Positions 2 through 20,987 are shown, counted from the stretch's first letter. The stretch is DNA of 64,000 bases from Candidatus Obscuribacterales bacterium (GCA_046328035.1 JAXLXI010000003.1:73547-137546); one strand, 5' to 3'. The notes: generated by a model from the letters alone, not told the origin. Numbers and translations are program-made.

Positions 2-3000
2 CTCGGAAAGCTCAATAGAAGGAAAGGAAACCTGCAGGCGGCGGAAAAGGCATACCGCACTCAGTTGGATTTGCTGATCAAGTCCAAAGCCACCGCCTCC
101 GAACTGGAAGATCCACTTAAGGAACTGGGCCGGGCACTGGTCGAGTTGGGACGTCTCGGAGAGGCAGAACCTTATTACAACCAGGCTTACGTGAGCATAG
201 CCAACAAAAGACAGGTGCGAAAGAACGTTTTTATTGATGTGGTCATAGAAACCCAGAGCGCAATGGCCACCAGCGTCTATAAAAGCAAGTTTGGCGGCAA
301 TGCCGACGATCTCGCTAAAACCATCGCAGACACCAAAGCCCGACTTGATCCTAATGGCGGTGTTAATTCACGTTCTCTGGCGTACGCTGATTTTTTGGAA
401 TCCGTTGGCTTTGCCTATCCAAACTTTCGCATCAAACGACAGCCCCTGATTCCGTTGCTTGAAGAAGCCATTCAGATCAGACTGCGTGTTGAAGGTCCCG
501 ATACGCCAAGAATTGCCGACGACAAATTCCAAATCGCCGTGCGTCTCGCCAATCTCGGAGGTGATTACACAGCTCCCGCTCTGGACGCATACAAGATTTG
601 GGTGAAATTGCGCGACAGACACGATGTGCGTCTCAAGTCATTTCAGCCTTCCATCCTGCGGCTTGCGTACCTGCTTGCCGGAAATGCCGAGACCAAGTCG
701 CAAGCGCTGGAAATGGCAACTTTAGCCCGCGCGAACCTTGCACCAGATTCGCCGAATGCCGGCCGCGAATGGGGCGGATTCGGACTTCTGTACGAGAATC
801 TAGGAGAATTCGGGCAGGCACGTACCGCTTATGAAAAAGCGAACCTCTGGTTTCAGGCTCACAACGATCCCACAGGCACCGCGCGCACCGCCATTGCTGA
901 TGCACGAATTTGTTATCTCGAACGCGACTACGATGTTGCTTGGCAAAAAGCAAAAGCCGCTGAAGCGATCTGTCAAAAGAACTGGGGAGTTACCCACTAT
1001 CAGGAAAACGTCGCCGGCATGATGTGCCTGGAGACACTGACGGCGATCGCCAGAGCCAGAGGAGATCTGGAAGCGGCCGAACTTTACGCGCGTATGCTGA
1101 CACTGAAAACCAAATGGCTGCAGCAAAACAGCGATATGGCACGCCACTATCTGGCGCTAGCTCAGGTGTTGAGCATGGGCAACGACAAAAGCGAAGCCAC
1201 CAGGTATGCTCAGGACGCAGTCTCAATTCTCTCGAACCTGAGAGAGAAGACCTCATACGATGAGATCGAGTTAGCTAAGGCGCACCTTCTATTGGGTGGT
1301 CTGGCGCTGGCGAAGCAAGATTATAAGCTCGCCGATGCAGAGTACAGACAGGCATTTATTCTCCACGGCACCGATAAGTCCACCGACGGAGTATTGGGAT
1401 TGGTGGCAGACTTGAATGGCATAGCTTTCACCGGCAGCAAGCTCGGCAAGAAACAAGCCGCCATTGAAAATGCGCTGCTCGCCTGCGACAAACTGGACAC
1501 CTACATCAAAACCGGGTTTCCAGAACTTTCCTTTGCTGAACAATGCGCGTTTATCAAATGTGTACGCGATGAGATCAATCCGCTGCTTTCGCTGGGCACT
1601 ACTGGCGATACTACTGCTGAACCATTCAAGTATGTCATGCGCTGGCAAGGTCTACTGATAGATGCGGTCAGGAGACAGACGAGTCTCGAGCGCAGCGGTG
1701 ATCCGCAGACCGTCGCGCAACTGCGGCAAATCAGGCAGGAGCTGTCGCAACTTTCTTCGGGCGCCGCCATGAATAATCAAGCTGCATCTACTGCGGCTGC
1801 GATCCAAACCAAGACCGAAGCGAAGGAGGCATTGGAACGTAAACTAGCTCTCAGCGCCACGGTCACCACTGCCACCACCGATCCGATGCTAACGCTGACT
1901 CCACGTGACTTTGTCAATTCACTGTCAAACGACGAAGCTCTGGTGGACGTACTGCGCTATAAAGACTTGCTCGCTAACAAACCTGCGTATTACGCTTTCG
2001 TAGTTTCGAAGAAAGCCGGTGTCAAAGGATTCCGTCTGGGAGATGCGGATGACATCGAAAAGCTGTCCGCCCAGTGGCTGCAGGCAATGGCATCCAATTC
2101 CGGCAGCACCCGTGACGTGTCGATCTTGGATGAAGATCCCAAATCAACTGAGCCGGCCAAAACTCAGATCGACCTGGATGCCGCTACCGGCACCGTCACA
2201 CAAAAACTGTGGACGCCGATAAAAGCTGCACTGCCTCCCGGCATACGCCGAGTGTGGATTTGCCCGGATTCCCAACTAGCCACTTTGCCGTGGTCCACCA
2301 TGGTGGATTCAGTGGAAAACGGACAGGTACTGACTAGCCAAATCGATAGCCCCAGGGCTTGGTGGCAGCTCAAAGCGCCACACCAGACTCCGGTCGCGCA
2401 AGACTTTCTGCTGATTGGCGGTATTCGGTTCGCCCAACAATCTCTGTTTCTTCCCGGCACCGAATCTGAAGTCGCCGACATTTCGAAACTTGCCGAGCCG
2501 GTGAAACTGCATCTGTCGAAACTGACCGGTGCTGAGCCGACAAAGAACGAAGTTTTGAGACAACTCGGGACGGCAACTTATGCGCACCTTGCTACTCACG
2601 GCTTTTTTGATCAAGGTGACGAAAAAACAATCAGTCAGCAGGCTGCACAAACTGTCGCAGATCAATTGTTGGCGTCGCAGAGAAGCTTCGTGACAGTCTC
2701 TACAGGAGAGGGCGCACTCAACACCACGGCTGTCATGTCCGCACGAAACCCGCTCGTAATGTCAGGCTTGCTCGTAGCACCAGCCCAGGGGTCCAATGTG
2801 AACGCCAACGATCGACTGACGGCCGAAGAACTGGTCGGCCAAGATCTCAGCCACTGTAACCTGGTTGTTCTATCCGCATGCAACACCGGTCGCGGCAAAG
2901 ATTACGAAGGGCAGGGTGTGATGGGGCTGCGCGCCGCACTGATCGGAGCCGGTGCACGCGGAGTGCTGATGTCTCTCTGGCCGGTTGATGATCGCGCAAC

Positions 3001-3169
3001 CAAAGAGTTGATGAAGAACTTCTACCAGAATCTTTGGAACCCAACCAATCCGATGCAACCCGTAGCCGCGTTGAGAGCCGCTCAGAACACCGTCAGGTCG
3101 GCTCCTGGTGGCAAATGGAAGCATCCCTATTATTGGGCAGGCTGGGTCTTCGACGGAGTTGGTTGGTGA
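2..3169 (+). CDS. TPR-repeat / CHAT-domain (caspase-fold) protein, 5'-partial. The reading frame is open to the window edge.
   Basis: ORF 65-3169 has no in-frame stop upstream to position 2. It has N-terminal TPR-like repeats. The C-terminal CHAT signature includes HLATHGFFD and LVVLSACNTGRGKDYEGQGVMGLRAA, which carries the His/Cys dyad context. Confidence 0.8.
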   Translation, partial: LGKLNRRKGNLQAAEKAYRTQLDLLIKSKATASELEDPLKELGRALVELGRLGEAEPYYNQAYVSIANKRQVRKNVFIDVVIETQSAMATSVYKSKFGGNADDLAKTIADTKARLDPNGGVNSRSLAYADFLESVGFAYPNFRIKRQPLIPLLEEAIQIRLRVEGPDTPRIADDKFQIAVRLANLGGDYTAPALDAYKIWVKLRDRHDVRLKSFQPSILRLAYLLAGNAETKSQALEMATLARANLAPDSPNAGREWGGFGLLYENLGEFGQARTAYEKANLWFQAHNDPTGTARTAIADARICYLERDYDVAWQKAKAAEAICQKNWGVTHYQENVAGMMCLETLTAIARARGDLEAAELYARMLTLKTKWLQQNSDMARHYLALAQVLSMGNDKSEATRYAQDAVSILSNLREKTSYDEIELAKAHLLLGGLALAKQDYKLADAEYRQAFILHGTDKSTDGVLGLVADLNGIAFTGSKLGKKQAAIENALLACDKLDTYIKTGFPELSFAEQCAFIKCVRDEINPLLSLGTTGDTTAEPFKYVMRWQGLLIDAVRRQTSLERSGDPQTVAQLRQIRQELSQLSSGAAMNNQAASTAAAIQTKTEAKEALERKLALSATVTTATTDPMLTLTPRDFVNSLSNDEALVDVLRYKDLLANKPAYYAFVVSKKAGVKGFRLGDADDIEKLSAQWLQAMASNSGSTRDVSILDEDPKSTEPAKTQIDLDAATGTVTQKLWTPIKAALPPGIRRVWICPDSQLATLPWSTMVDSVENGQVLTSQIDSPRAWWQLKAPHQTPVAQDFLLIGGIRFAQQSLFLPGTESEVADISKLAEPVKLHLSKLTGAEPTKNEVLRQLGTATYAHLATHGFFDQGDEKTISQQAAQTVADQLLASQRSFVTVSTGEGALNTTAVMSARNPLVMSGLLVAPAQGSNVNANDRLTAEELVGQDLSHCNLVVLSACNTGRGKDYEGQGVMGLRAALIGAGARGVLMSLWPVDDRATKELMKNFYQNLWNPTNPMQPVAALRAAQNTVRSAPGGKWKHPYYWAGWVFDGVGW

Positions 3170-3171
3170 CT

Positions 3172-6100
3172 ATGAAGAAACTGCTACTTCTCTTAGCGGC
3201 GGCACTATCCTGTGCCTGTCAGGTGGATGCCCAGGAATCCAGCAAGAAATTGCAGGACGCCGAAAAGTCCTGCCGAGCGCAAATCGAGCAGCTCACTAAA
3301 AATAAGGCGCCTGAGGCGCAGCTGGCGAAAGCCCTTCATGAGTTAGCGGGAATACTCGTTGAGGAGGGTCGCCCGGCAGAGGCAGAGCCCCTCTACAATC
3401 AGTACAGAGACAACGATGCACTAATTCGCAAAAACATTTTCATAGACATTGCTTTAGAAGCTCAGAACTCCGCCGCACGCGAAACTCACGAAAAAGCTTT
3501 TGGTATCGCACCCGATCTCAGCAAAGTAATGTCCGACAACGGCTCAAAAATGGATCCGAACTCGGTCCAGTACGCCCAGTTTCTGGACGATGTTGCAATT
3601 GCGTATCCATACTTCAAAAACAAGACGCAGCCGGTGATTCCAATCATTGTTCAGGCGATGCAGATCAGACAGAAGCTGGAAGGCAACGATAGCCCGTCCG
3701 TCGCTCAGGAAAAGTTTTTGATCGCACATCGACTGGCGGCGCTGGGTGGTGACTATGTTCCGCCCGCGCTGGAAGGGTATGCAATCTGGAAGAAGTTGAG
3801 CGATGCAAAAGATGCTCGCCTCAAGACACCAGCCGTTCAAGCATCGTTGGTGCGCCTGGCTTACCTCTTGTCCGGCGATGAGAGAACGCGGCAGAAGGGG
3901 GTAGAACTGGCAAATCTGGCTCTTGCCAATTTCAGCGCTCTTGCTCCCAACGGTGACTTATCCGTATCGCCTGTTAACGGTCGCGAAAAGTACGGATTGG
4001 GACTGTTGTTTGAAAATCTCGGAGACTATGCAAAGGCTGAAGCTACCTTCGCGGCGTCTCAAATTTGGTACGCAAACCACAACCAGCCGCAAGACAACAG
4101 AGTGCGAACACTGATTGCCCGAGCCAGAGTGTGTCGCCTGGAAGGTGACTATGATGTAGCTTGGTCGAGAGCCAGAGAAGCAGAAGATCTCTGCAAGAAA
4201 CTTTGGGGGCCGACCTATTATCAGGACAACATGCTCGGCATGAATTGCCTGGAGGTCCTCACGTCGGTCGCCCGATCCAAAGGCGATCTGGCAGCAGCAG
4301 AAAACTATGCGCGGCAGCTGTGTGGGAAATCGAACCTGCGATTGAGCAACAGTCAGGTAGCTAGTCATCAACTGGAACTAGCACAAGTTCTCAGCTTGTC
4401 GAACAACGCCGCTGAGGCGGCATCGGTCGCGCAAAAAGCGGTGACAATTCTCTCCAGCATCATCCAACCAACCTACACCGATCAGTCCGAACTAGCCAAA
4501 GCGCACTTGCTGCTTGCCGGGCTTGCCCTTTCCAAGCAAGACTACAAACTTGCGGACACCGAGTATAACCAGGCATTGAAACTGCATCTCAAAGACACGT
4601 CGAGCGCTGGTGTTCTTGGGCTGGTGGCGGACTACAATGGCATTGCATTCGCTAACAGCAAACTTGGTGCCCAAGCAGTTGCGAATAAAAATGTTTTGGC
4701 CGCCTGCGAGAAGCTGGACGAGTTTGTAAAGTCCGGGTTTCCGAAGCTCTCATTTGCAGGTCAGTGCGCGTTTATCAAGTGCGTAGGCGATCAGATCAAC
4801 GCGCTCCTATCATACGGCTCGGCAACTGAGTCAGCCGACAAGCGATTTGAATATGTTATGCGCTGGCAGGGTCTTTTGATCAACGCTGTCAGACAACATT
4901 CCAACCTGGAACGCAGCGGCGACCCGAACACCGTCGCCGCCCTCAGAAACATCAGGCAAGAGCTTTCAAAACTCTCCGCCGGTGGTGCCGGTCAACAATC
5001 CGATCTGATCGGCATTCAGACCCGGACAGAAATTAAAGAAATGCTCGAACGCAAACTCGCCCTCAAAAATACTGCGACCGGCGAGATCGATCCAACGCTC
5101 ACCAAAACAGCTCGCGAGTTCGCAAGCTCATTGAGCAGCGATGAAGTCGTAGTAGACATGCTCCGCTACAAAGATATGCTCACCAACAAGTCGGCATACT
5201 TCGTCTTTGCAGTTTCTAAGTCAGGTGGTGTCAAGGGATTTCGACTGGGTGATGCCGACGACATAGATAAGGTGTCAACCGATTGGCTTCACGCCATGGC
5301 TTCGAACTCTGGCACCGCCCGCGATGTCTCCATTACCGACGACGACGAGAAACCAAACTCGCCAAACGCTGCCAATGCACCCCGCGTCGATTGCACTGAG
5401 CTGGCAAATGCCGTCGGCAAGAAACTTTGGTTGCCCATCAAAGCAGCAATCCCGGCAAGCGCTCCAAAAGTGTGGATTTGCCCCGACTCAAAACTTGCGA
5501 CCCTGCCCTGGTCTGTTCTCATAGATAACAACGAAGGCGGCCGCATACGCACCTGTCAAATCGACAGTCCGCGCGCCCTGCTGCAATTGCGGGCACCTTA
5601 TAAAGCTCCTCAAGCAAAAGATCTCTTTGTGATCGGCGGCATCGAGTTTGCGCAAAAGGCACTTTTCCTTCCGGGTACAGAATCCGAAGCCAACGAAATC
5701 GCCGCGCTTGCAGAGCCAATGAAGCTTCATGTGTCGAAGTTGACTGGTCTTCAGCCGACCAAGGATGAGGTGCTCAAACACTTGAGCAGTTCCACTTATG
5801 CACACCTTGCCACGCACGGATTCTTCGATCCGGCAGACGACCGAGACAAAACGGTGCCCCTGGTGACATTGCCTGGCGACACAGTGAGGTTCTCCGGCAA
5901 AGATCAGGGCGGCATCGACACGAGAGCTGCAGCCGCCTCGCGCAATCCACTTGTCTTGTCCGGTCTTCTGGTGGCACCAATACCGGACGCACAAAAATTG
6001 GGCGGTGGCCAATTCAAATCCAACTACCTGAACATCATCGCGGGCAGCAACAACGATCGGCTTACCGCTGAGGAGTTGGTTGGCCAGGACTTGAGCCACT

Positions 6101-6414
6101 GCAATCTCGTTGTCTTGTCCGCCTGCAACACCGGTCGCGGCAAAGACTACGAAGGGCAGGGAGTGATGGGACTGCGCGCCGCATTAATCGGTGCCGGAAC
6201 GCGAGGAGTCTTGATGTCACTCTGGTCTGTCGATGACAAGGCCACAAAAGAATTGATGAAGGCGTTCTATCAAAATCTGTGGAATCCCACGAAACCGATG
6301 AAACCAGTCGACGCATTGAAGGCGGCGCAAGAGTCGGTGAAGTCAACCCCCGGTGGCAAGTGGAAGCATCCCTACTACTGGGCGGGTTGGGTCTACGACG
6401 GCGTGGGCTGGTAG
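3172..6414 (+). CDS. TPR-repeat / CHAT-domain protein with a Sec signal peptide. It is a tandem paralog of the upstream gene.
   Basis: The ATG at 3172 (M47 of the ORF) opens MKKLLLLLAAALSCACQVDAQ. The domain order is the same as gene 1 and the C-terminal roughly 120 aa are near-identical to it. Confidence 0.85.
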   Translation: MKKLLLLLAAALSCACQVDAQESSKKLQDAEKSCRAQIEQLTKNKAPEAQLAKALHELAGILVEEGRPAEAEPLYNQYRDNDALIRKNIFIDIALEAQNSAARETHEKAFGIAPDLSKVMSDNGSKMDPNSVQYAQFLDDVAIAYPYFKNKTQPVIPIIVQAMQIRQKLEGNDSPSVAQEKFLIAHRLAALGGDYVPPALEGYAIWKKLSDAKDARLKTPAVQASLVRLAYLLSGDERTRQKGVELANLALANFSALAPNGDLSVSPVNGREKYGLGLLFENLGDYAKAEATFAASQIWYANHNQPQDNRVRTLIARARVCRLEGDYDVAWSRAREAEDLCKKLWGPTYYQDNMLGMNCLEVLTSVARSKGDLAAAENYARQLCGKSNLRLSNSQVASHQLELAQVLSLSNNAAEAASVAQKAVTILSSIIQPTYTDQSELAKAHLLLAGLALSKQDYKLADTEYNQALKLHLKDTSSAGVLGLVADYNGIAFANSKLGAQAVANKNVLAACEKLDEFVKSGFPKLSFAGQCAFIKCVGDQINALLSYGSATESADKRFEYVMRWQGLLINAVRQHSNLERSGDPNTVAALRNIRQELSKLSAGGAGQQSDLIGIQTRTEIKEMLERKLALKNTATGEIDPTLTKTAREFASSLSSDEVVVDMLRYKDMLTNKSAYFVFAVSKSGGVKGFRLGDADDIDKVSTDWLHAMASNSGTARDVSITDDDEKPNSPNAANAPRVDCTELANAVGKKLWLPIKAAIPASAPKVWICPDSKLATLPWSVLIDNNEGGRIRTCQIDSPRALLQLRAPYKAPQAKDLFVIGGIEFAQKALFLPGTESEANEIAALAEPMKLHVSKLTGLQPTKDEVLKHLSSSTYAHLATHGFFDPADDRDKTVPLVTLPGDTVRFSGKDQGGIDTRAAAASRNPLVLSGLLVAPIPDAQKLGGGQFKSNYLNIIAGSNNDRLTAEELVGQDLSHCNLVVLSACNTGRGKDYEGQGVMGLRAALIGAGTRGVLMSLWSVDDKATKELMKAFYQNLWNPTKPMKPVDALKAAQESVKSTPGGKWKHPYYWAGWVYDGVGW

Positions 6415-7257
6415 TTAGCCGGAAATTCTGCGATGTCCAATAAAAACGTGCTTGCCCTGCAGGGACTCTACTAGTCCCATAAAATCGGCCAGTGTGGTTT
6501 GCGGATCTTGATCCGGATTGAGCGCGACCGCAAGTCCTGCGAGATCGCCGTAGGAGCTGTTTCCTTCCTGAGCTTTCTCAATGATCGCCGCCGCCACATG
6601 TCCCACGGACAAGAAACGAATCTCTTTGTCCTCAGGATCTCGATAAACAAGGACAATACTCGGCTCCGCCTTCACGTCTACCGGCAACTCATCCGACTCT
6701 TCTTCCAGCTTCTCGGCGATGGCGATGAGATCGAACTGATACCGCCGAATAAGCAGAGCCGGGTTGACCAGAGGTTTGAATCCCGCGAACTCCTCAGCCG
6801 ATTGCAGCAGGCACGTATCGGATTGATAATCGAATTCCGTATCATCGAAATCAATCATGTCGCTTTCGGAAAACTCGTAATCGACCAGGTCCGTCAAGTA
6901 AGGAAACTTTTCCTTCACCTGTTCGTTCAAATGTTTTTCGATGAATGTCTTGAAGTGTTCGCCGGCGCGACTGGATCTGTAGCTGGTCGGCGGGCAGATG
7001 TTGCGATAGTCTTCCACGATTTCGTCCCAGTCTTCTCCTAACAGTTTTTCCGTCAGAGGAAAAGTCATGCTCATCGTTTCGTAGTGTTTGACTTGCAAAA
7101 CTTGAACGTAGATCATCAGCCGTTCTTTATCGATTTGAGCGGCGATCTCGGGACCAATGTCCGAGAAGTCGCCTGCCAAGAATCGCTCCAATGCGTCGCG
7201 ATTGGTCCATAATTTGGTCATTGCCTTTTCGACTTCGGAGAGCGTGGTACCAGGCAT
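6415..7257 (-). CDS. DUF2063-like partner protein of the DUF692/MNIO enzyme (MbnC/BufC/HvfC-type)
   Basis: It lies 4 nt downstream of the DUF692 gene on the same strand. It is 280 aa with an N-terminal region compatible with DUF2063. The call rests mainly on the conserved gene pairing. Confidence 0.55.
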   Translation of the reverse strand: MPGTTLSEVEKAMTKLWTNRDALERFLAGDFSDIGPEIAAQIDKERLMIYVQVLQVKHYETMSMTFPLTEKLLGEDWDEIVEDYRNICPPTSYRSSRAGEHFKTFIEKHLNEQVKEKFPYLTDLVDYEFSESDMIDFDDTEFDYQSDTCLLQSAEEFAGFKPLVNPALLIRRYQFDLIAIAEKLEEESDELPVDVKAEPSIVLVYRDPEDKEIRFLSVGHVAAAIIEKAQEGNSSYGDLAGLAVALNPDQDPQTTLADFMGLVESLQGKHVFIGHRRISG

Positions 7258-7261
7258 AGTT

Positions 7262-8179
7262 TTATCCGCGTACCCGGTGTGACGTCTTCGCCTGATTCGC
7301 CTGAGACTTGCTGTCGAGCCAGCCTGGTTGTGCTGCTTTGACTACAGCTCGAATATCGTCCAGCTCTGCCAGTAACTCAGAAAACTCATCGGGAAAATGC
7401 TGATCGCGCTCGAGGAGAATCGCGTTGACTGGAACCCGTTCCATCACATACTTAAGCAGATCCAGAACCGGTCTTGGAGGTGTGGCACCATGCGTATCCA
7501 CATAGGCATCGAATTCGGGAGCATGGTGGTGACCGGCTATGTGAATTTGTACGGTGCGCTCAAGCGGAATCTGATCCATAAATTCGATAGGATCGAACTT
7601 GTGATTGAGCGAATTGACATACACATTGTTGATATCGAGCAGAAGCCCGCAATCGGCTTGCTCCAACACTTCAGAAAGAAACTGAGCTTCATCCAGCTCG
7701 CTGCCGGGCATACGCATGTAGTACGTGATGTTTTCGAGAAGAAACGGAATGTCCGTCATCTCCTGGACTTTCTTCGCGCGTGTCACGCAATGCGCAACGG
7801 CTTCGCGTGAGAACGGCAGCGGCAGCAACTCGTGCGTTTGCACGCCGCCAAAGGCGCTGAAACAAAGATGGTCGCTCCACCAAGGAGCATCGATATGCTT
7901 CAGGAGTTTCTTCAGAGACCGGATGTAGTCCTGGTCTATTTCGTCGGTGCTCCCGAGAGACAGTCCGACCCCGTGCGCGATTAGAGGGAACACCTTTAAA
8001 GCCCTGTCCAAGCGGGCTCGCGATTTTCCGCCCAGTCCCATGAATTGCTCGGAGATTATTTCCAGCCAGTCGATCTGCTCGGCGTGCTCGAAGGTTTCGT
8101 CTTCCACTTCGTTGCGCAGCCCCATGCCGACACCCAGTATCGGCAATTGCTTTTTCACATCGAGAAACTTAGACGTCAT
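7262..8179 (-). CDS. DUF692 / UPF0276 family TIM-barrel protein (MNIO, MbnB/BufB/HvfB-like)
   Basis: The N-terminal LGVGMGLR motif is typical of UPF0276. The protein is about 305 aa. The motifs HLCFS, IHIAGHHHAPEFD and DTHG provide His/Asp/Glu metal-ligand candidates. Its start overlaps the upstream stop as TAATG. Confidence 0.8.
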   Translation of the reverse strand: MTSKFLDVKKQLPILGVGMGLRNEVEDETFEHAEQIDWLEIISEQFMGLGGKSRARLDRALKVFPLIAHGVGLSLGSTDEIDQDYIRSLKKLLKHIDAPWWSDHLCFSAFGGVQTHELLPLPFSREAVAHCVTRAKKVQEMTDIPFLLENITYYMRMPGSELDEAQFLSEVLEQADCGLLLDINNVYVNSLNHKFDPIEFMDQIPLERTVQIHIAGHHHAPEFDAYVDTHGATPPRPVLDLLKYVMERVPVNAILLERDQHFPDEFSELLAELDDIRAVVKAAQPGWLDSKSQANQAKTSHRVRG

Positions 8180-9570
8180 TATTTAGCCTTGCGCTTGCTT
8201 ACGGGAAGTCCACAATCAGCGGGATTGGAATCACCGGCGTACGACCAGTCAGGTCGCACAAATTTTGTGTCGGCGCAATAAATTGCCATGCCGGCCATCG
8301 AGTCTTGCGGCTGCGCCGTCGGATTGACGTAAGTCGCTTCCAGCTCGTAATGCTTGCCCCCTATCAAAGGAATACCTTCGCTGGAACTCAGCGTGTCGAT
8401 GTGCAAAATCTGCAGCGGCTTTTCCTGCGTTCGCGCCTTGACCAAGATCACTTCTTTGCGCGCTTTACCGTTGCACTCGACCAGCGCAAATTTTTCACAA
8501 TAAGGATGCACGTGAGCCATGACCAGATGAACGCGTCTGTTCACCGCGGAGAAATCGGCATTGGCAGGCGATGTGATGGTGCTGACGGGACTTGTGTAAG
8601 TGTGAGTACCGGGTGGCACCACCCAGTGCCCGATTTGTTTGCGCCCCAGCTCATCACTGAAGATCATGCTTCGCATGCTGCTCGGTGCCGGCACGCCATC
8701 AGACATCAAAGAGCAGTCCGGGCACATGTTGTGTTCTTCCTGTGCCGCCTCCGGCGAATTGCGATCGATCACCACATTGATCACCGGGTAGTACCAGAAT
8801 AGAGCTTTGATTGGATAAACAAGTTCCGAATCGCGGACGAATGAAAGTATGCAGCGTTGTTTCACACGCCGGGGCTTGTCGCTGTCTCTATTGATTGCTT
8901 GAAAAATGAATCGCCAGGTCTCGTCGCTGGCCACCGGCAATCCATAGCCGCGAGGAAAGGTGAATTCGGTCTGCCCCTGCGAGAGGACGATGTGGCGCAT
9001 GCTTCCTGGTTGTTCGCTCTCAGGAAACACCTGGCTGCGGAAATCTAGATCGACATCAATGGTCGAGTGGCAGAAAAATTCGTCGGTAGGTAAAACCTGA
9101 TCGTTTTCGTCCAGGACTTCCAGCTTGATCGACTTCAGCCAGAGCAACTCTCTGCCTTTTGTGCGCGAGGCTTTCAGCCCGATCACACCTGCATCCGTTA
9201 CATCGGACTTCGCCCCTTTGGCACTGCCGGACATAGCAGGTGCCGGTTTTGAACAACCTTCAACGAATTGTACAAGGGCTTCTGGAATTTGAATCTGCTT
9301 CGACGCAATCAGATCGGCAATGCGCAGCGGCTCGCGCACATAGGGACCTTCCATGGATCGATATTTTTTGTGCAGGTCGAAAGGACCGATAGTAATTTCG
9401 ACGGTGCTCAGCGGTCCTTCCGTTTGCTGACTATCGCGTTGGACAGGCAGCGCTGTACTTACTAGAGAATCAAACCCTGCGCCCATTGCGGGCAACTTGA
9501 GCTGGTTGGCAAATAAACTACCAACCAGACACAACGTTGCTAGCACGGACGCAGGGCTAAATTTTCTCAT
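8179..9570 (-). CDS. Secreted 463-aa protein of unknown family, co-operonic with the MNIO genes
   Basis: The N-terminal signal peptide is MRKFSPASVLATLCLVGSLFA. It contains several Cys/His clusters, including HVHPYCEKFALVECNG and MCPDCS. I could assign no domain. It is translationally coupled to the DUF692 gene. Confidence 0.6.
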   Translation of the reverse strand: MRKFSPASVLATLCLVGSLFANQLKLPAMGAGFDSLVSTALPVQRDSQQTEGPLSTVEITIGPFDLHKKYRSMEGPYVREPLRIADLIASKQIQIPEALVQFVEGCSKPAPAMSGSAKGAKSDVTDAGVIGLKASRTKGRELLWLKSIKLEVLDENDQVLPTDEFFCHSTIDVDLDFRSQVFPESEQPGSMRHIVLSQGQTEFTFPRGYGLPVASDETWRFIFQAINRDSDKPRRVKQRCILSFVRDSELVYPIKALFWYYPVINVVIDRNSPEAAQEEHNMCPDCSLMSDGVPAPSSMRSMIFSDELGRKQIGHWVVPPGTHTYTSPVSTITSPANADFSAVNRRVHLVMAHVHPYCEKFALVECNGKARKEVILVKARTQEKPLQILHIDTLSSSEGIPLIGGKHYELEATYVNPTAQPQDSMAGMAIYCADTKFVRPDWSYAGDSNPADCGLPVSKRKAK

Positions 9571-9585
9571 TGAACCTGAGGCTGA

Positions 9586-9930
9586 CTACTTGGTTTCAGC
9601 TTCCTTTTTGGCATCTTCGGCCGGTTTGGATTCGCCGGCTTTGTCGGTCTTGCCATGCTTCTTGGCGTTGCCGTAGTGGCATCCGCACGGATATGTGCAA
9701 CCGCCGCCTCTGTTTTTGCCAGGACCTTTTTTCTTGCCGGCAGGCTTGGCTTCTTCTTTCTTGGTGTCGTCTTTCTTATCGGTGTCGGCCAGGTTGGTTC
9801 CCTTTTCAGCGATTGCCATTCCGGTCGATTTGGCTGCTACTGCCGGTTGACCTGAGCTGACCAGAACACCAGAGCTGACGCTGATCGCTGCGAGCAATAC
9901 CGTCAAATCGGTCTTGTTCAATTTTTCCAT
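9586..9930 (-). CDS. Putative RiPP precursor peptide. It is Sec-secreted, Lys/Glu-rich and carries a single CTYPCGCHYG core motif.
   Basis: The ATG at 9930 is preceded by GGAGG at a 5-nt spacing. The ORF-track start at 9942 is a TTG. The signal peptide is MEKLNKTDLTVLLAAISVSSGVLVSSGQPAVAA. The remainder has three Cys in a 7-residue window. It sits 15 nt upstream of the next gene. Confidence 0.65.
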   Translation of the reverse strand: MEKLNKTDLTVLLAAISVSSGVLVSSGQPAVAAKSTGMAIAEKGTNLADTDKKDDTKKEEAKPAGKKKGPGKNRGGGCTYPCGCHYGNAKKHGKTDKAGESKPAEDAKKEAETK

Positions 9931-10046
9931 TCTGTCCTCCAATTCCTATAACTCAGGGAAGGTTACTTCCCTTATGGCGGGCCAAAACAGATTATCGTCG
10001 GCAGATAACGATTTGCCCATATGTTTCTACAAAAAATTCCTTGGCT

Positions 10047-12164
10047 TTATCTAATGACAAGCCTGAGAGTCGTCGTGGTCCACTCGTCAAGCGAGTTGCT
10101 GTCTTCCTCGCTGACGCCCAGATCGCGGGTGTTGTGACCACCGACGCTGCGGCGGAAAAGTTCTTCCAGCGCCGTACCGGGACCGGACGGAGCAGCACGG
10201 CTGACGCCAGACTGTCCAAGTATGGTGAAATCAGCCGGCTTGGTTGTGACGATAAATTTGAGGGTCTCCACTCCCAGGGGCGGCTTGATGCTAAGCAAGC
10301 GCTTCTGTGCCGGCCACCGGAAAGTACCTTTAGGAGGCAGCGGATATTTGGCATTGTCCGGCGGATAGAGCACAGCGATGCTGCCGCTGGTCTCAATTGC
10401 CAAAATAGCGATGTAGATATTTTCGTCCGTGGTGTTGGTCAACTTGAGTCGCAACTTGTCCCCCACGTGCACGGTGGGCACAAGTTGATTTCCTGGAACG
10501 GGATCTTCTTTGAAGGTCGGCTCGCCCCATTCGTCTTTACCAAGTGGGGTAACTTTCAGCACTTCGATCTTCAGAGCGCCCTTGAGAGGCGAGACTTGAT
10601 TATCGAGAGCCAACACGCGCTGCTGTCGAGCTCCCTTTTCCAGAGCGCTGGCTATGGTGTCGGCAGCGTGTGGATCGTTTTCATCCACCCAGACATCAAA
10701 GAGCGGCGCACCATCCTTAGTGGCAATGAAGTAACCGTTGCCTTTGGCGTCACGAGTGCCGGCGGAACTTTTCTCCTGCTGGAAGTTATTGTATGTGTCC
10801 TTCACGACAGACATGTCCCAGCCGCCGGCGTCGCGTGTTTTGAACGGATCAGCGGTTTTGCTGGCAATTTTGACCAGTTTGGGGTCGACCGAATCAGTCA
10901 GGCCCTTGGTGAACTGCTGCCAGCTGGCTGAGTTCGTTTCTCCAGGAACGGCATTGAATGCTGTCACATTGAGCGGACCGGCGCCGAAGTGCGGCGTGAC
11001 GATTTTGGCTTTGGCCGACTTCAACGCTTCCTGATCAACGCCTGCCGGTCTTTCGATGGTGGCACTGAGTGCATTGCAATCTTTGGCGCTGGCGACACCC
11101 AACAAATCTTTGTTGCCGCGCAGCTGAGTTGCTTCCTTTTTATAGAACGCCACCAGCGTGCCTGGATCGATCCCCTGCAGAGAACCGGCGGCAATGGTGA
11201 TGCTCTTGTCGGTGACTTCCGAAACTGGAATGTACGGATCGGCTCGATCGGTTGCATCGCCGAATATGAAACGGTCGATGTCGCCTTCGATTTGCGGATG
11301 CTGATTGGAACGGTTGCCCGTCACTCCCGTTGCCACCGCTCCCCACAAGTCGCGATATGTAGTACCGGCGTTCGCCTGCTCAAGCGCATCAATCAAGTTT
11401 ATTGTCAGAAGTCCATTGGCACGGTCACCCTGCGGAGTATCGGTGTCGGACTCGCCGGCAGTCTCGTTGGGCAAGCATCCCGCCATTGACACATAAGTAG
11501 CCGGTGGAGCGCTTTTGGCGTCCTTTGGTTTTTGTGGAGGTTGCGGTCTGTCATCAGTCTCGGCCTTGCGCAGTCTCACACTCACGGTCGCGTCTCGAAC
11601 ATTGGAGCCGGAGTGGCAGCAATCAGTGATTATGGTGATGTTTTTCGTATATTGACCGAGCTGGTTGATCAGGTCTTCCAGATCGTCGTCGGTAAGGTCG
11701 TAGTGATCAGGCTGGCGAGAATCTACCGGCACGAGAGTTTCATCCATACCGTCCTCCTCATCGCCGTTCATGTCGGGCACCTGAGAGCCATGCCCGCTGT
11801 AATGAAACACACAGATGGCATTCGGATTTGCTTTGGCATTCTCAATCAATTGAGCCTTGAACGCATCAACGATGGCTTGTCTGGTTGCCTGGCGCGAGAG
11901 CAAGACTTTTATATGTTTGTCGTCATCAGGAAACCCGAAGCGTGTCGTGAGAAGCTTGCGCATGTCCTTCGCATCGTTTTCACAACCATCCAGCTTTTCC
12001 AGGCGTTTGGAGATGTAGTCATCAATGCCAATCAAAAGGGCAAACTTGTTTTGATTGCCCGGCTGCTGGGGAGCGTCAGCTGCGGCAGCCATACGAATCG
12101 GTCCGAGTACCGCCACCAGCATCACGCAAAGTGCCACCACTGGAGAGATCAGATGTCGTTTCAT
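10047..12164 (-). CDS. Secreted peptidase C14 (caspase/metacaspase-fold) domain protein with a roughly 450-aa C-terminal extension of unknown function
   Basis: It has a signal peptide. Caspase signatures present are FALLIGIDDY, HYSGHGSQ and DCCHSG. Confidence 0.8.
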   Translation of the reverse strand: MKRHLISPVVALCVMLVAVLGPIRMAAAADAPQQPGNQNKFALLIGIDDYISKRLEKLDGCENDAKDMRKLLTTRFGFPDDDKHIKVLLSRQATRQAIVDAFKAQLIENAKANPNAICVFHYSGHGSQVPDMNGDEEDGMDETLVPVDSRQPDHYDLTDDDLEDLINQLGQYTKNITIITDCCHSGSNVRDATVSVRLRKAETDDRPQPPQKPKDAKSAPPATYVSMAGCLPNETAGESDTDTPQGDRANGLLTINLIDALEQANAGTTYRDLWGAVATGVTGNRSNQHPQIEGDIDRFIFGDATDRADPYIPVSEVTDKSITIAAGSLQGIDPGTLVAFYKKEATQLRGNKDLLGVASAKDCNALSATIERPAGVDQEALKSAKAKIVTPHFGAGPLNVTAFNAVPGETNSASWQQFTKGLTDSVDPKLVKIASKTADPFKTRDAGGWDMSVVKDTYNNFQQEKSSAGTRDAKGNGYFIATKDGAPLFDVWVDENDPHAADTIASALEKGARQQRVLALDNQVSPLKGALKIEVLKVTPLGKDEWGEPTFKEDPVPGNQLVPTVHVGDKLRLKLTNTTDENIYIAILAIETSGSIAVLYPPDNAKYPLPPKGTFRWPAQKRLLSIKPPLGVETLKFIVTTKPADFTILGQSGVSRAAPSGPGTALEELFRRSVGGHNTRDLGVSEEDSNSLDEWTTTTLRLVIR

Positions 12165-12203: not shown

Positions 12204-13136
12204 TTAGGGCGATGGGTCTGAGGGTTTTGCAAAAAGCACGGCATCGCTGCCGCTCCACCGGCTGTAGTTCACCGTGGGATGCTGTTCGTGCATGCGCAGC
12301 CTGGCTGCCATAATCACTTGCTGGCGTGTTTCCTCAAAAGCAGTCTTGAGTTTTCCGTCGTATTTGGCCAGGTTTTCCAAAAGATAGTGAGTGAAAAGCC
12401 CGCTCTCGTTAAAATCGTCATCTACAGATGTTTCATTGGCAGAGCAGGCGGTGACAGCAATCTGTCCGGCACCGATGACGTCGGTGGTCGCTGCGGCGTC
12501 TCTGGTTTTGACGTTGCCGGAAAAACAGGTATCAACGATGATGACGACTCGATCTGAGGGGAGCGATTGTTTGATCATGCGACCCAGCTCTTGCATGCTC
12601 AATCCCGTGCTCTTCGGATTTCGATCGTCGAAGTCGTAGGTGAGAATGTAATTTTCGCCGTTCTTGTCCGAGAATGACGTGCTGCCGTGGCTGGAGAAGT
12701 ACACGACCACCAGGTCGTCGGGGCGTACGACGTTTTTCAGCCAACCCGAGCCCAGGTAATAACGAATTTTTTCGCCAGTGGCTTGCGAGTTCAACAAGAC
12801 TTTCACGTGGCTGGGGGCAAATCCGGCTTTGTAAATCAGGAAATTGCGCACGTCGACGGCATCCTTGACGCTGAACGTGAGCGAGTCGGCGCGAGCCGGG
12901 AGAACCAGGCGAGGAGTAGTGGACGTGCCTTTCTCGATGTGAGCGCCGAGCAAATCGACTGTGGGAAACTCGCTAACTCCAATCAGCAATGCCCACTTAT
13001 CGGTGACCGGGCGATCGACAGAAGCGGCTGCCGGAGCGGCTGCCTCAGTTTTTTCCGACGCTGCGCGCACCGGTCCGAGGGTGGGCACGAGCAGTGCTGC
13101 CAGCAAAAGGTAGAAGCGCAATTTCGAAAACGACAT
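12204..13136 (-). CDS. Secreted caspase-like (peptidase C14 fold) protein
   Basis: WALLIGVSEF, YFSSHGS and VDTCFSG provide the His/Cys dyad context. The signal peptide is MSFSKLRFYLLLAALLVPTLG. The ATG at 13136 is preferred over the GTG at 13163. Confidence 0.7.
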   Translation of the reverse strand: MSFSKLRFYLLLAALLVPTLGPVRAASEKTEAAAPAAASVDRPVTDKWALLIGVSEFPTVDLLGAHIEKGTSTTPRLVLPARADSLTFSVKDAVDVRNFLIYKAGFAPSHVKVLLNSQATGEKIRYYLGSGWLKNVVRPDDLVVVYFSSHGSTSFSDKNGENYILTYDFDDRNPKSTGLSMQELGRMIKQSLPSDRVVIIVDTCFSGNVKTRDAAATTDVIGAGQIAVTACSANETSVDDDFNESGLFTHYLLENLAKYDGKLKTAFEETRQQVIMAARLRMHEQHPTVNYSRWSGSDAVLFAKPSDPSP

Positions 13137-13223
13137 AGTTGTATGCCTGGGTTGATCGTGCACATATTAAGACGAAATGCGAAAATGACGCGAGGTTGTG
13201 AACAATTTCTCGTCTGCCGGAGT

Positions 13224-17743: not shown

Positions 17744-19360
17744 ATGCGCGCTGTCGTCGGGTTGCTGGTAGGAATGCTGACTCTCGGCATCGGAATGGCT
17801 GGAACTTCGCATTGGTGTTCGCCGGCGCTGGCGACTGTTGCTTGCGTGGCAGAAGTAAAGGAAGCACCAGAGCACAAAGGTATTGTCTTCGAGCAGTTCT
17901 ATCTTCCTTGCCTGTCGCAAGCATCTTATTTGATTGGCGACACCAAATCAGGCAAGGCGATTGTTGTCGATCCTGAACGCGACATCGACAAGTACATAGA
18001 GTCGGCTCAGAAACACGGACTCAAAATCACGCACGTGTTCTTGACGCACGTGCATGCCGATTTCGTCGCCGGACACCTGGAACTGCAGCGACGCACGGGC
18101 GCGCAGGTTTGCATGGGTTCGGAAGCAAAGGCTGCGTTCAAGTTTCTTCCTTTCAAAGATGGTGACAAACTGACCTTCGACGGACTGGAGGTGCTAGCCA
18201 TTCACACACCGGGGCACACGCCGGAAGCGATATCGCTGGCGATTGTCGATAAGCAGAGTGCAACCGGCGGCGCGTCCGATAACGCAGCACCGTATGCGGT
18301 ACTGACCGGCGATGCGTTGTTCATCGGTGATGTGGGTCGCCCGGACTTGCTGGCATCGTCGGGTTATACCGACAAGCAACTGGCTGGCATGCTCTACGAG
18401 TCATTGAGAAGCAAGCTGATGAAACTGGACGATGCGGTGCTCGTCTACCCAGCGCATGGTGCAGGGTCGCTGTGCGGCAAAAATATGAGCACAGAAACTG
18501 TTTCAACCATCGGCGAGCAGAAGAAGACTAACTATGCGCTGCAAGAGATGGAGAAAGATAAGTTCATAGCGCTGGTAACTGCGGATCAACCGCCGGCACC
18601 GAAGTATTTCAGTTATGACGCCAAGCTCAACATGAGCAAACATCCCTCGCTGGAAACTGTAGTCGCTCAGAAACTTAAGCCGTTAACTCGCGAGCAACTC
18701 TTGAGACTGAAAAATGGTGGCGCACAAATATTGGATGTGCGTGAAGCCGACGACTACGCCAAGGTGCACTTCGTGGATAGCCTCAACATTCCGCTCTCAG
18801 GTCGGTTTGCTGGGTGGGCGGGAGCGTTTCTCGACCGCGAAATCCCGATTGTTTTGATCGCCCCATCTGGCAAGGAGAAACAGGCTGCGCTGCGTCTGGG
18901 CCGTGTCGGTTTCGATAACTATTCGGGATTTTTGAGTGACGCGATCGATCAGCTCTCGCTTGAAGAAGGAACGCTTGTGAAAGCGCCGCGCACAGATGCG
19001 CAACAACTGGAAAGCGAGGTTAAAGGCCAAACACCACCGGTAGTGCTGGATATTAGGACCAAAACGGAACGCGGCGAAGCGCAGATTGCTAACTCGCTGT
19101 TCATTCCGCTTATTCAGATGCAGACAAACATCGCTGACGTGCTGAAGCAACAACTCGCCGATGTTCCGAAGGACAAAGAGATTGTGGTTTACTGCGCCAC
19201 CGGGTTTCGGTCGTCCCTGGGAGCCAGTCTTTTGCGCCAGCAGGGTTTCAAGAACGTCAGCGATTTGCGTGGTGGCATCACGGCCTGGCAAAAAGCAGGA
19301 TTCCCGGTACAGACCGGAGAGTGTGCCGCGGCGGCCAAACCTGCACTGCCACCAGAGTGA
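17744..19360 (+). CDS. MBL-fold persulfide dioxygenase fused to two rhodanese domains (CstB-like)
   Basis: The metallo-beta-lactamase motif is THVHADFVAGH, followed by HTPGHTPE. The first rhodanese-like domain has no active-site Cys. The second has CATGFRSS. Confidence 0.75.
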   Translation: MRAVVGLLVGMLTLGIGMAGTSHWCSPALATVACVAEVKEAPEHKGIVFEQFYLPCLSQASYLIGDTKSGKAIVVDPERDIDKYIESAQKHGLKITHVFLTHVHADFVAGHLELQRRTGAQVCMGSEAKAAFKFLPFKDGDKLTFDGLEVLAIHTPGHTPEAISLAIVDKQSATGGASDNAAPYAVLTGDALFIGDVGRPDLLASSGYTDKQLAGMLYESLRSKLMKLDDAVLVYPAHGAGSLCGKNMSTETVSTIGEQKKTNYALQEMEKDKFIALVTADQPPAPKYFSYDAKLNMSKHPSLETVVAQKLKPLTREQLLRLKNGGAQILDVREADDYAKVHFVDSLNIPLSGRFAGWAGAFLDREIPIVLIAPSGKEKQAALRLGRVGFDNYSGFLSDAIDQLSLEEGTLVKAPRTDAQQLESEVKGQTPPVVLDIRTKTERGEAQIANSLFIPLIQMQTNIADVLKQQLADVPKDKEIVVYCATGFRSSLGASLLRQQGFKNVSDLRGGITAWQKAGFPVQTGECAAAAKPALPPE

Positions 19361-19371
19361 GACGTTGATGC

Positions 19372-20598
19372 ATGGATGAGCTGCTCGGCGCTCGATTAGA
19401 TAGGCGTGCATTTCTGAGAATCGCTGCGCTCGCCGGTACAGCAGCGTCTGGACTGGCCGGCTGTGTAGAACGCGCCGAGAAGTCGCTAATTCACGTGCCG
19501 GCGGGGCAAACTGTCGCGCGGTTTCCTGAGAAAGCGCAGTTGATCATGCTCACCGATCGGCCGCCGCAGTTGGAAACGCCGCTTTACTATTTCAAGGAAA
19601 TGCTGACACCAAACGATGCATTCTTTGTGCGGTGGCACTATGCGGGCATTCAAACCAGCATCGACCCAAAGAGTTTCACCTTGAGCGTCAACGGGCTGGT
19701 AGGAAACCCGATCTCGCTCGGGATGGAAGAGTTGCGCAAGCAGTTCGACCCAACAACGATCACCGCTGTCTGCCAGTGTTCCGGCAACTCTCGCAGCCGC
19801 ATGCTCCCACCAGTGCCCGGCGGGCAGTGGGGTGAGGGCGCCATGGGCAACGCACGCTGGACCGGAGTGCGGTTGAAGGATTTGCTGAAGAAAGCCGGCA
19901 TCAAATCTGGTGCGGTCGAAGTCGCATTTGCCGGCACTGACGAGGCACCACTTTCCAACATGCCGAAGTTTTGCAAGTCGCTTAAAGTCGACCACGCTTT
20001 ATCGGGCGAGGTGTTGGTCGCCTATGAAATGAACGGTGCACCGCTGCCGGTGCTCAATGGATTCCCGTTGCGCCTGGTGGTGCCTGGTTGGTATGCGACG
20101 TACTGGGTAAAGGCGCTGACCGAGATAACGGTCTTGCCGGAAACGCTGGATAGTTTCTGGATGAAAACCGCATATCGCATTCCGAACAATGCCACCGCCA
20201 ATGAATTGCCGAAGACACTGGCGACCGACACCGTCCCCATCAACAAGCTCAACCTGCGGTCGATATTCGTGGTACCTGAAATGAACGCCACAGTTTCCTC
20301 CGGCGAGCAAATCCAGTGTCAGGGAATTGCATTCGATGCCGGATCCGGCATAAAGCAGGTTGATGTATCCACCGACGGCGGCAATACATTTATGCCTGCA
20401 ACTCTGGTTGGACCAGACCTGGGCAACTACAGCTGGAGGCAGTGGCGTTTTGATTGGCGTCCGGACAGGGTCGGCAAGCACACACTCGCCGTCCGCGCCA
20501 CCAGCAACTCGGGCGCCGTGCAGACCAACATACCCCACTGGAATCGCAGTGGATACATGCGAAACGTAATCGAGAAAGTGGAGGTCAAAGTCGTTTGA
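19372..20598 (+). CDS. Sulfite-oxidase-family molybdopterin enzyme, SorA-like catalytic subunit with a Tat signal
   Basis: The twin-arginine motif is RRAFLRIAALAGTAASG. The Mo-Cys loop is CQCSGNSRSR. A C-terminal dimerisation-like domain is present. Confidence 0.7.
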   Translation: MDELLGARLDRRAFLRIAALAGTAASGLAGCVERAEKSLIHVPAGQTVARFPEKAQLIMLTDRPPQLETPLYYFKEMLTPNDAFFVRWHYAGIQTSIDPKSFTLSVNGLVGNPISLGMEELRKQFDPTTITAVCQCSGNSRSRMLPPVPGGQWGEGAMGNARWTGVRLKDLLKKAGIKSGAVEVAFAGTDEAPLSNMPKFCKSLKVDHALSGEVLVAYEMNGAPLPVLNGFPLRLVVPGWYATYWVKALTEITVLPETLDSFWMKTAYRIPNNATANELPKTLATDTVPINKLNLRSIFVVPEMNATVSSGEQIQCQGIAFDAGSGIKQVDVSTDGGNTFMPATLVGPDLGNYSWRQWRFDWRPDRVGKHTLAVRATSNSGAVQTNIPHWNRSGYMRNVIEKVEVKVV

Positions 20599-20987
20599 AC
20601 CTCCGACAGCCGCTTCTTCCCATAGCTGTTTTCACCGTGCTGATGTTATCGGCATGTTCAAGCACTAGAACCGCCGGTACTGCTCCGGTGGCGCCCGATG
20701 CTCACGCAAATGTGCCGGCAGACTACATGGAAGCACGTAATGTCCAGTTCCCCGTAGATCAAGGCGTCTTCCCGCAGGTGAAGGGCTACGATAAGTTTGC
20801 CGCCTCCTGCACTATTTGCCATTCGCTGCGTTATATCGAGATGCAGCCGAATTTCCCAAAGACTACATGGGCAAAGGTTGTGCATAAGATGGTCACCACT
20901 TACGGTGCACCTATATCCGATGCCGACGCCGCCGAAATCATTGATTATCTGGCTACTATTAAAGGAAAGCCGGAGGCGCCGAAATGA
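20595..20987 (+). CDS. Mono-heme cytochrome c, SorB-like electron-acceptor subunit
   Basis: The TTG start at 20595 overlaps the upstream stop and has GGAGG 9 nt upstream. It has a lipoprotein-like signal peptide. The single CxxCH motif is CTICH. Confidence 0.65.
   Translation: MNLRQPLLPIAVFTVLMLSACSSTRTAGTAPVAPDAHANVPADYMEARNVQFPVDQGVFPQVKGYDKFAASCTICHSLRYIEMQPNFPKTTWAKVVHKMVTTYGAPISDADAAEIIDYLATIKGKPEAPK

Follow-up and report, generated by a model that had tools for sequence, protein, structure and literature searches.

What does an operon make that sets a small secreted peptide and a secreted orphan protein beside a DUF692-type enzyme and its DUF2063 partner? The question is raised by a 64,000-nucleotide stretch of DNA from Candidatus Obscuribacterales bacterium (GCA_046328035.1 JAXLXI010000003.1:73547-137546), hereafter the window, in which four co-directional open reading frames (ORFs) span positions 6415..9930 on the minus strand. 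Our results indicate that the small ORF very probably encodes the substrate of a multinuclear non-heme iron oxidase (MNIO) acting with a PME-type 1 partner in an operon for a peptide that is made by the ribosome and modified after translation (RiPP). The best explanation of the whole locus, a bufferin/captophorin-type RiPP operon whose precursor family and accessory protein are both new, is one on which our confidence is evenly poised.

The operon and its enzyme pair

From its 5' end, the operon encodes a precursor peptide of 114 amino acids (aa) (9586..9930, with the ATG at 9930), a 463-aa secreted protein with a PHM/DBH fold that we call X463 (8179..9570), a 305-aa MNIO of the DUF692 family (7262..8179) and a 280-aa PME-type 1 partner (6415..7257). 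The precursor gene is followed after a 15-nt gap by the X463 gene, the X463 stop and the MNIO start share one base (TAATG), and 4 nt lie between the MNIO stop and the start of the DUF2063 partner. A preliminary description of this DNA had reported the four packed genes, and the coordinates and junctions agree with it; the first ORF is 114 and not 115 aa long, while the signal peptide, the single motif and the three cysteines ascribed to it stand. The operon is no chance juxtaposition, because the same peptide family adjoins MNIO genes in about ten other distinct loci.

The 305-aa protein matches PF05114 (MbnB_TglH_ChrH/DUF692) with 307.3 bits (cut-off 25, E = 1e-91), its residues 16-280 aligning with profile positions 1-262 of 263, so the DUF692 protein proposed at 7262-8179 was recovered in the very search that had been suggested for it. 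BufB (NF050167, 271.2 bits) and HvfB (NF003818, 260.1 bits) are its two best NCBIfam models by a wide margin; ApyH reaches 115 bits, ChrH 62 and MbnB (TIGR04159) 42.3 against a cut-off of 325. The nearest solved structure is 3BWW (phmmer, E = 4.5e-51), with which the window MNIO shares the motifs HG, SDH, EN, LD-NN-YVN, HIAGH, DTHG and LLERD in the phmmer alignment; the ligand roles of single residues in these motifs are those given in the literature. 3BWW is the MNIO of Histophilus somni, which has been grouped with PME1-dependent enzymes (PMC13097082).

In the 280-aa protein, PF09836 (DUF2063) covers residues 30-106 with 37.1 bits (cut-off 27.2) and PF22106 (NGO1945_C, RRE-like) covers residues 165-266 with 31.9 bits (cut-off 27). 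Because both domains lie above their gathering thresholds, the protein is assigned by sequence to the partners that PMC12452194 calls PME-type 1, in keeping with the DUF2063-like protein first described here; it scores 67.6 bits against the HvfC model, under the cut-off of 142. Neither the MNIO nor the partner has a hydrophobic N-terminus, and therefore both are predicted to be cytoplasmic. The two proteins, separately encoded in the window, are fused into a single protein of 608-626 aa in sister lineages (L081 6148..8001, L084 6121..8001, L002 8040..9866 and L087 8319..10157, where L numbers denote loci).

MNIO-PME1 pairs broadly install 5-thiooxazoles that bind copper (PMC13097082, PMC11626156), and PME-type 1 partners correlate with precursors that carry Sec signals (PMC12452194). 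By analogy with these systems, we lean somewhat towards a product that carries thiooxazoles and binds copper. Two features of the enzyme weigh against this reading. Its scores lie under the cut-offs of both the BufB (310) and the HvfB (360) models, and it departs from the FonB pattern at the positions that set the residue preference around the target Cys, namely an Arg-Arg pair close to the N-terminus and an Asp-Phe pair that follows the catalytic Asp (PMC13097082): 3BWW has RR and DF there, whereas the window MNIO, aligned via 3BWW, has R22-N23 and D260-Q261. As judged from this alignment, the window MNIO keeps the putative catalytic base and not the specificity residues of the Lys-Cys or Cys-Lys groups, and it could differ in its choice of Cys or even in the reaction that it catalyses.

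The precursor peptide and its gene neighbourhoods

To the 5' side of the precursor ATG, a Shine-Dalgarno sequence (GGAGGA, 9935..9940, minus strand) was read directly from the sequence at a distance of 4 nt, and the 116-nt gap 5' of the gene holds a weak sigma-70-like match (TGGGCA-17-GATAAT, 9991..10019, minus strand; nine of 12 positions in a consensus scan), which does not count as evidence of promoter function. The precursor itself consists, in order, of a signal/leader region, a Lys/Glu/Asp-rich spacer, a core and a charged tail. Its hydrophobic N-terminus ends in AVA|AK, the predicted cleavage site, and residues 1-33 (9832..9930, minus strand) were called as signal peptide and putative leader from hydropathy (Kyte-Doolittle maximum 2.33 in an 11-residue window) and the AXA motif. 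There are exactly three Cys, all in GGGCTYPCGCHYGNAKKHGK, and the family alignment defines the core motif as G75-G-G-C78-T-Y-P-C82-G-C84-H-Y-G87 (9670..9708, minus strand). The mature part of 81 aa contains 19 Lys, 6 Asp, 7 Glu and 1 Arg, and has an isoelectric point of 9.4 and a net charge of about +7; in the AlphaFold (AF2) model, the predicted local distance difference test score is 51.8 and only a helix at residues 6-18 is predicted, the score being about 50 elsewhere. These properties are consistent with a signal peptide followed by a disordered Lys/Glu/Asp-rich chain, and they uphold the initial picture of a disordered polycationic precursor.

A profile search of 5.8 billion proteins yielded a family of nine clusters, with lengths of about 100-120 aa and one 156-aa gene call that has an upstream extension. 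All members contain YPCGCHYG and a preceding Cys, and the alignment shows C78, Y80, P81, C82, G83, C84, H85, Y86 and G87 to be invariant. Conservation, taken as the fraction of sequences that have the most frequent residue and averaged over columns, is bimodal along the peptide: it is 0.86 in the core (75-87) and 0.74 in residues 1-21, and 0.44-0.50 in the spacer and tail. For comparison, the signal peptide of X463 reaches only 0.33 across the X463 family. The conserved signal region of the precursor may be recognised by the RRE domain in the DUF2063 partner; this idea of leader recognition, a part of our reading, is weakened by the finding that Buf1 forms heterocycles with its signal peptide dispensable (PMC11626156).

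The precursor matched no Pfam model (E <= 10) and no NCBIfam model (E <= 0.1), and around its three Cys (contexts GC-T, PC-G and GC-H) there are no EGKCG repeats and no KC or CK dyads. Judged by sequence, it fits none of the known types, whether DUF2282/Buf1, BUF_6/12Cys/Buf2, EGKCG/oxazolin, CxxxxC, Lys-Cys, Cys-Lys repeats or adjamnio; it was set apart from the Buf2, EGKCG, CxxxxC and adjamnio groups by their published descriptions. Its separation from the DUF2282 and EGKCG types, and from the methanobactin type by its signal peptide, the low MbnB score and the DUF2063 partner, had already been proposed and is borne out.

In a six-frame scan of 94 loci, the core motif was confined to the precursor loci: a second precursor copy was not found in the window, and YPCGCHYG was absent from the X463 loci other than the precursor loci. 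A scan of 241 million JGI metagenome records for YPCGCHYG gave eight raw matches, of which one locus (L094) was confirmed by tblastn. The L094 ORF (151..480) was rejected as a precursor and considered a chance match: it is antisense to the gene of a His/Asp-rich protein, has no signal peptide and has no MNIO. The family is extremely rare and limited to a few Obscuribacterales metagenome genomes.

Four arrangements of the genes were distinguished among the homologues. Type A, precursor-X463-MNIO-DUF2063, is found in the window, L001, L092 and L097; type B has the precursor, the MNIO::DUF2063 fusion and then X463 (L002, L081-85, L095 and L096); type C has two tandem precursors followed by the fusion and no X463 (L087-91); and type D is a precursor-X463 pair with no MNIO within 5 kb on one side, where the contig ends, or 8 kb on the other (L080). 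An MNIO thus adjoins the peptide gene in all looked-up loci but one, in three gene orders, and on this ground we regard the small ORF as a genuine, conserved, MNIO-linked gene and the putative precursor. The tandem precursors of type C (L087 7552..7896 and 8001..8303; L090 7592..7924 and 8001..8303) share a common leader (MERKPKPDLAALLTALS...), and their cores contain CIDCTCGC or CADCCGCKY (QKCIDCTCGCGKSG or GRCADCCGCKYSKG) in one copy versus CYPCGCHYG in the other. Because the leader is conserved and the core variable, this is, at the sequence level, the classic pattern and a hallmark of RiPP precursors.

Immediately upstream of the type B operons are the genes of an OmpR-type regulator and of an RND pump for heavy metals, which scores 1131 bits in the CusA/CzcA family (cut-off 701); they constitute an independent metal-homeostasis context. 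In L081 the RND pump (582..3812), the regulator (3917..4594) and a divergent fasciclin-domain gene (4709..5284) stand together, as they also do in L084, L095 and L096. At the other end of type B operons, the X463 gene converges on a Peptidase_S9 gene of the prolyl-oligopeptidase type, and the two overlap at the 3' end of X463.

These arrangements bear on which protein is the substrate. X463 directly precedes the MNIO in the window, where it separates the MNIO from the precursor as in all type A loci; it has a signal peptide and the invariant cysteines C167 and C286, and the MNIO landscape paper allows for long protein substrates, so X463 could itself be the substrate and the small ORF an accessory or a non-substrate. 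We consider this extremely improbable. In types B and C it is the small ORF that sits directly upstream of MNIO::DUF2063, X463 following the fusion in the former and being missing from the latter, and the same Cys are kept in over 100 homologues of X463 that have no MNIO nearby.

The composition of the core raises another alternative, in which the MNIO performs other chemistry on a Tyr/His/Cys core, such as Tyr or His oxidation, cross-linking or backbone rearrangement, and the product is not primarily a copper binder. Besides Cys, the invariant core holds many Tyr, His, Pro and Gly residues, MNIOs that form ortho-Tyr cross-links and other products are known (PMC12257519), and the sub-threshold BufB and HvfB scores would fit. 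On the other hand, these two models remain the best by far (271 and 260 bits versus 115, 62 and 42), the thiooxazole group is marked by just this combination of a PME-type 1 partner and a Sec-signal precursor, and a Cys-Gly dyad of the kind preferred by FonB (PMC13097082) is present at C82-G83. We therefore hold such other chemistry to be improbable, and continue with the thiooxazole reading.

The secreted protein X463

No Pfam or NCBIfam domain was found in X463 (Pfam down to E = 10), and its profile retrieved only noise from the PDB sequences. The early remark that the protein has no recognised family holds as far as Pfam models go, but it can be placed by its fold, a two-domain jelly-roll matching PHM and DBH, and by a CuM-type triad. 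X463 has 236 close homologues, and a library of 1.8 billion proteins contains 842 representative clusters at E <= 1e-3; most family members are from metagenome-assembled genomes (MAGs) of Obscuribacterales/Melainabacteria, Xenobia, Acidobacteriota, Gemmatimonadota and Myxococcota, often with three to five paralogues per genome. A cyclophilin domain follows at the C-terminus in about two-thirds of the close homologues, and others carry ankyrin, HTTM, AhpC/TSA or VanZ domains. Among the fusion-bearing relatives (P0012-P0113, P0172, P0184, P0196, P0214 and P0031), cyclophilin-type prolyl isomerase fusions recur at either the N- or the C-terminus, while HTTM, AhpC/TSA redoxin, VanZ and ankyrin fusions are single cases. 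These fusions suggest a protein- or peptide-directed redox function. A scan of 28 relatives and 10 distant ones detected the fused domains alone and no copper-monooxygenase model.

The landmarks of X463 are collinear with those of rat PHM. F-C167-H168 corresponds to V-H107-H108, P206 to P151, Q224/I226 to Q170/H172, V-V-P-P-G321 to V-I-P-P-G217, M351 to R240, H353-x-H355 to H242-x-H244, D423-S-M425 to D312-E-M314 and A429 to Y318. From H355 to M425 there are 70 residues, exactly as from H244 to M314 in PHM, and the sole large difference is an insertion of about 50 residues between the two domains. Across 121 sequences of the family, C167, H168, Q224, N227, H315 and W316 are invariant, as are H353, H355 and M425 in 119, the other two being gapped or truncated there; S72-M-E-G-P76 and C286 are further invariant features. 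In structure, we interpret X463 as distantly related to the type-2 copper monooxygenases, with a predicted CuM-type triad, the oxygen-activating site of these enzymes. A second site is possibly formed by the Cys-His pair, perhaps with H315.

X463 differs from PHM and DBH, which are type-2 copper, ascorbate-dependent enzymes with PF01082 and PF03712, in lacking significant sequence similarity to them, in being bacterial and often belonging to cyclophilin-fused proteins within its family, and in its N-terminal extension with the invariant SMEGP besides the interdomain insertion. The CuH-type ligands are not kept: C167-H168 and I226 (Ala elsewhere in the family) replace His-His and His, so that H107 becomes Cys and H172 becomes Ile or Ala. 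Likewise, the PHM clamp of R240, N316 and Y318 is replaced by M351 (Trp in the outgroup), G427 (variable) and A429 (Gly in the outgroup), and X463 is not a peptidyl-Gly amidating enzyme. C-terminal amidation of ...HYG had come into consideration because the conserved Gly87 of the precursor precedes basic residues; it was rejected as unlikely, since the carboxylate-clamp residues of PHM are not conserved.

Several of these results count against a copper-oxygenase role for X463 in the pathway. The hhalign matches to rat PHM (E = 0.044) and to a 25-sequence PHM alignment (E = 0.12) are short and collinear but not significant, and neither X463 nor the scanned relatives match PF01082/PF03712 (Cu2_monooxygen), so that homology to PHM rests on the fold and the order of motifs. 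The H353/H355/M425 site is predicted from sequence collinearity; as only one of the three CuH ligands is His, a canonical two-copper PHM mechanism is not guaranteed. Moreover, type C loci have no X463, so X463 is not essential to the family. An alternative in which X463 is a PNGase-F-like or other non-redox jelly-roll, that is, a hydrolase or binding protein whose His and Met are structural and whose role is unrelated to copper, we regard as very unlikely.

X463 is not a general MNIO accessory, an idea that was rejected: an MNIO adjoins X463 homologues in only two of 79 genome loci (L001 and L002), and clustering of 1021 neighbouring ORFs revealed no recurrent partner family. In a further locus, L023, an MNIO lies 7 kb from an X463 paralogue and belongs to an unrelated precursor with KSCKG repeats. 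This unrelated MNIO-PME1 operon comes from a 'Proteobacteria' MAG in which the X463 paralogue is of the cyclophilin type, and its signal-peptide precursor (19337..19783, minus strand) has seven KSCKGKE-type repeats of the Cys-Lys type. The linkage is instead a property of one subclade, at least 58% identical to the window protein (P0001-P0011) and free of the cyclophilin domain, every looked-up member of which adjoins the precursor, in two gene orders. The neighbourhood mining proposed at the outset thus gave a divided answer, with this subclade beside the precursor and most of the family unlinked to MNIOs.

Compared with 109 outgroup sequences, the subclade differs at nine positions that are conserved in the outgroup (147, 170, 195, 211, 226, 297, 351, 385 and 429). 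Four of the nine substitutions are at or beside equivalents of the PHM active site, namely I226 (H172), M351 (R240), A429 (Y318) and T170, which lies two residues after the Cys-His pair. Functional coupling of X463 to the peptide is, in our view, probable. Translational coupling, the pairing in two gene orders, the L080 pair and the remodelled cleft point to the recruitment and re-specialisation of an existing secreted enzyme family to work with the precursor peptide, as far as can be read from the sequences.

The direction of this relationship could run either way. The peptide might have X463 as its client or partner, either as a thiooxazole-bearing copper chaperone or buffer of the periplasm or by completing the degenerate CuH-type site with its own ligands. 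One of the three CuH-type His is kept (C167-H168, with Ile at the H172 equivalent); the X463 family works without the peptide in most genomes, and the subclade may have gained a dedicated copper supplier; the precursor-X463 pair of L080 has no adjacent MNIO; and bufferins and captophorins bind copper, with methanobactin likewise serving copper enzymes. Against this, the subclade changes extend beyond the metal ligands to the equivalents of R240 and Y318 in the substrate pocket, and the MNIO literature consulted offered no precedent. We consider this client relationship somewhat unlikely. That X463 is specifically a tailoring oxygenase is a tentative proposal, modelled on the fold; it is ranked slightly above the chaperone reading because the subclade changes touch not only the degenerate metal site but pocket residues too.

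A proposed pathway and its place among known systems

In the pathway that we propose, the precursor would be made with a Sec signal peptide that perhaps doubles as a handle for the RRE domain. In the cytoplasm, the MNIO and its PME-type 1 partner would oxidise one or more core Cys to 5-thiooxazoles, with a mass change of -4 Da each, a step that we infer because the enzyme pair is BufB/HvfB/FonB-like. Sec export and removal of the signal peptide would leave a disordered Lys-rich chain of about 81 residues with a single thiooxazole/His cluster, which may bind copper via the thiooxazoles, probably together with His85. In the periplasm, the co-translated X463 would act on or with the peptide, most likely as a copper-dependent oxygenase adding a second oxidation; fold and conservation suggest that it would bind copper at H353/H355/M425 and oxidise the exported peptide. 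Such a two-compartment, two-metal pathway, in which the iron MNIO makes thiooxazoles and the periplasmic PHM-fold X463 then acts on the peptide or uses its cluster as the missing electron-transfer copper site, is a speculative possibility that we put forward with reserve.

Some features of the locus and its surroundings stand apart from this pathway. A stoichiometry-setting attenuator between the precursor and X463 genes was rejected, as an RNA hairpin in this interval is no better than in shuffled sequences (z = -0.41). Directly upstream of the precursor gene, on the same strand, are two genes for caspase-like C14 peptidases with signal-peptide-like N-termini (10047..12164, 705 aa with DUF4384, PF00656 E = 2.9e-30; and 12204..13163, 319 aa, E = 2.6e-16). 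The pair is also a neighbour of the operon upstream in L097 and, relocated, downstream in L092, and is absent from type B and type C loci. It may belong to the peptide system, its peptidases conceivably acting as Lys/Arg-specific proteases that mature the Lys-rich peptide, or it may be there through synteny alone. Two large paralogous CHAT-TPR proteins, encoded on the plus strand (65..3169 and 3034..6414), are convergent with the operon and 57% identical to the L001 copies (tblastn), so CHAT/caspase/TPR genes flank the operon on both sides. Farther away, a single 878-aa ORF (20984..23620, plus strand) combines COX1 (CcoN-like), FixO (CcoO) and two cytochrome c/CcoP-type domains and is apparently a fused cbb3-type oxidase; just upstream of it are genes for a metallo-beta-lactamase+rhodanese protein (17744..19360) and a sulfite-oxidase-like molybdoenzyme (19372..20598). 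Window DNA is 97-98% identical to the Candidatus Obscuribacteraceae MAG JBGASG010000001.1, and the host is a Candidatus Obscuribacteraceae bacterium, a non-photosynthetic relative of cyanobacteria (Obscuribacterales, Vampirovibrionia).

Since 2025-26, any cluster of an MNIO, a PME1 partner and a Cys-containing peptide has been counted as bufferin/captophorin, a class with hundreds of unclassified small signal-peptide precursors (PMC12452194, PMC13097082). The locus has an MNIO, a PME1 partner and an upstream Cys-containing precursor with a predicted Sec signal, and by these defining parts its sequences place it as a cluster of this type, not as a BufB/HvfB/HvfC equivalog member. With BufABC, HvfABC/oxazolin and FonABC/fontiphorin it shares the BufB/HvfB-type MNIO, the partner with DUF2063 and NGO1945_C, the Sec-signal precursor upstream of the MNIO, the Cys-Gly dyad in the core and, in sister loci, heavy-metal efflux. 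It differs from them in its precursor, which has one YPCGCHYG motif and three Cys in a disordered Lys/Glu-rich chain; in lacking a sigma/anti-sigma pair and a DoxX gene, the DoxX/BufD-type accessory having been noted as missing from the operon before; in the inserted PHM-fold secreted protein; in its host, Obscuribacterales and not Pseudomonadota; and in the small size of the family, nine clusters only.

As in methanobactin biosynthesis (MbnA/MbnB/MbnC), an MNIO would turn a ribosomal peptide into a copper chelator by modifying its Cys, and a peptide serving a copper enzyme offers a possible analogy for X463. Unlike that system, the locus has no MbnC, its partner being DUF2063, its MNIO reaches 42 bits with the MbnB model against a cut-off of 325, and its precursor has a signal peptide; methanobactin has a short leader precursor without one, dedicated transporters and an oxazolone-thioamide. 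Adjamnio-VI (PMC12452194) resembles the locus in holding an extra function-orphan gene within a precursor-MNIO-PME1 unit, for which further modifications have been suggested. By its description, that gene lies between the MNIO and PME1 genes in buf1 operons, whereas here X463 lies between precursor and MNIO (type A) or after the fusion (type B).

The MNIO landscape paper and its supplements mention neither the motif nor the lineage. That study took ORFs of fewer than 200 aa immediately upstream of the MNIO, and a type A layout would be missed for this reason. The precursor motif was not found in the searchable literature, and we found no paper that links a PHM-type protein to MNIO or bacterial RiPP clusters. 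The proposal of an uncharacterised branch of MNIO-modified peptides is accordingly retained in part: the locus is an unclassified branch of a known class, bufferin/captophorin, and not a new class, while its precursor family and accessory are new.

MNIO-PME1 clusters are among the commonest bacterial peptide-modifying systems and are tied to copper stress, and their accessory genes and minor precursors are largely unexplored. The precursor described here, a minimal single-site substrate with one invariant core of eight residues, could serve as a model for how these enzymes choose their Cys, and it extends thiooxazole-type RiPPs, if the predicted chemistry holds, to non-photosynthetic relatives of cyanobacteria known only from metagenomes. 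The locus also ties the pathway, at the genetic level, to a secreted protein that has the fold and the CuM-type site of the animal enzymes that amidate hormones and hydroxylate dopamine. To our knowledge, the bacterial relatives of the PHM/DBH fold have no assigned function, and the MNIO-linked X463 subclade gives this orphan family a candidate substrate or partner. If the two-metal pathway is true, no bacterial PHM-fold enzyme before X463 would have been connected with a defined peptide substrate, and X463 would provide a functional handle for an orphan family of about 840 clusters of secreted, often cyclophilin-fused proteins.

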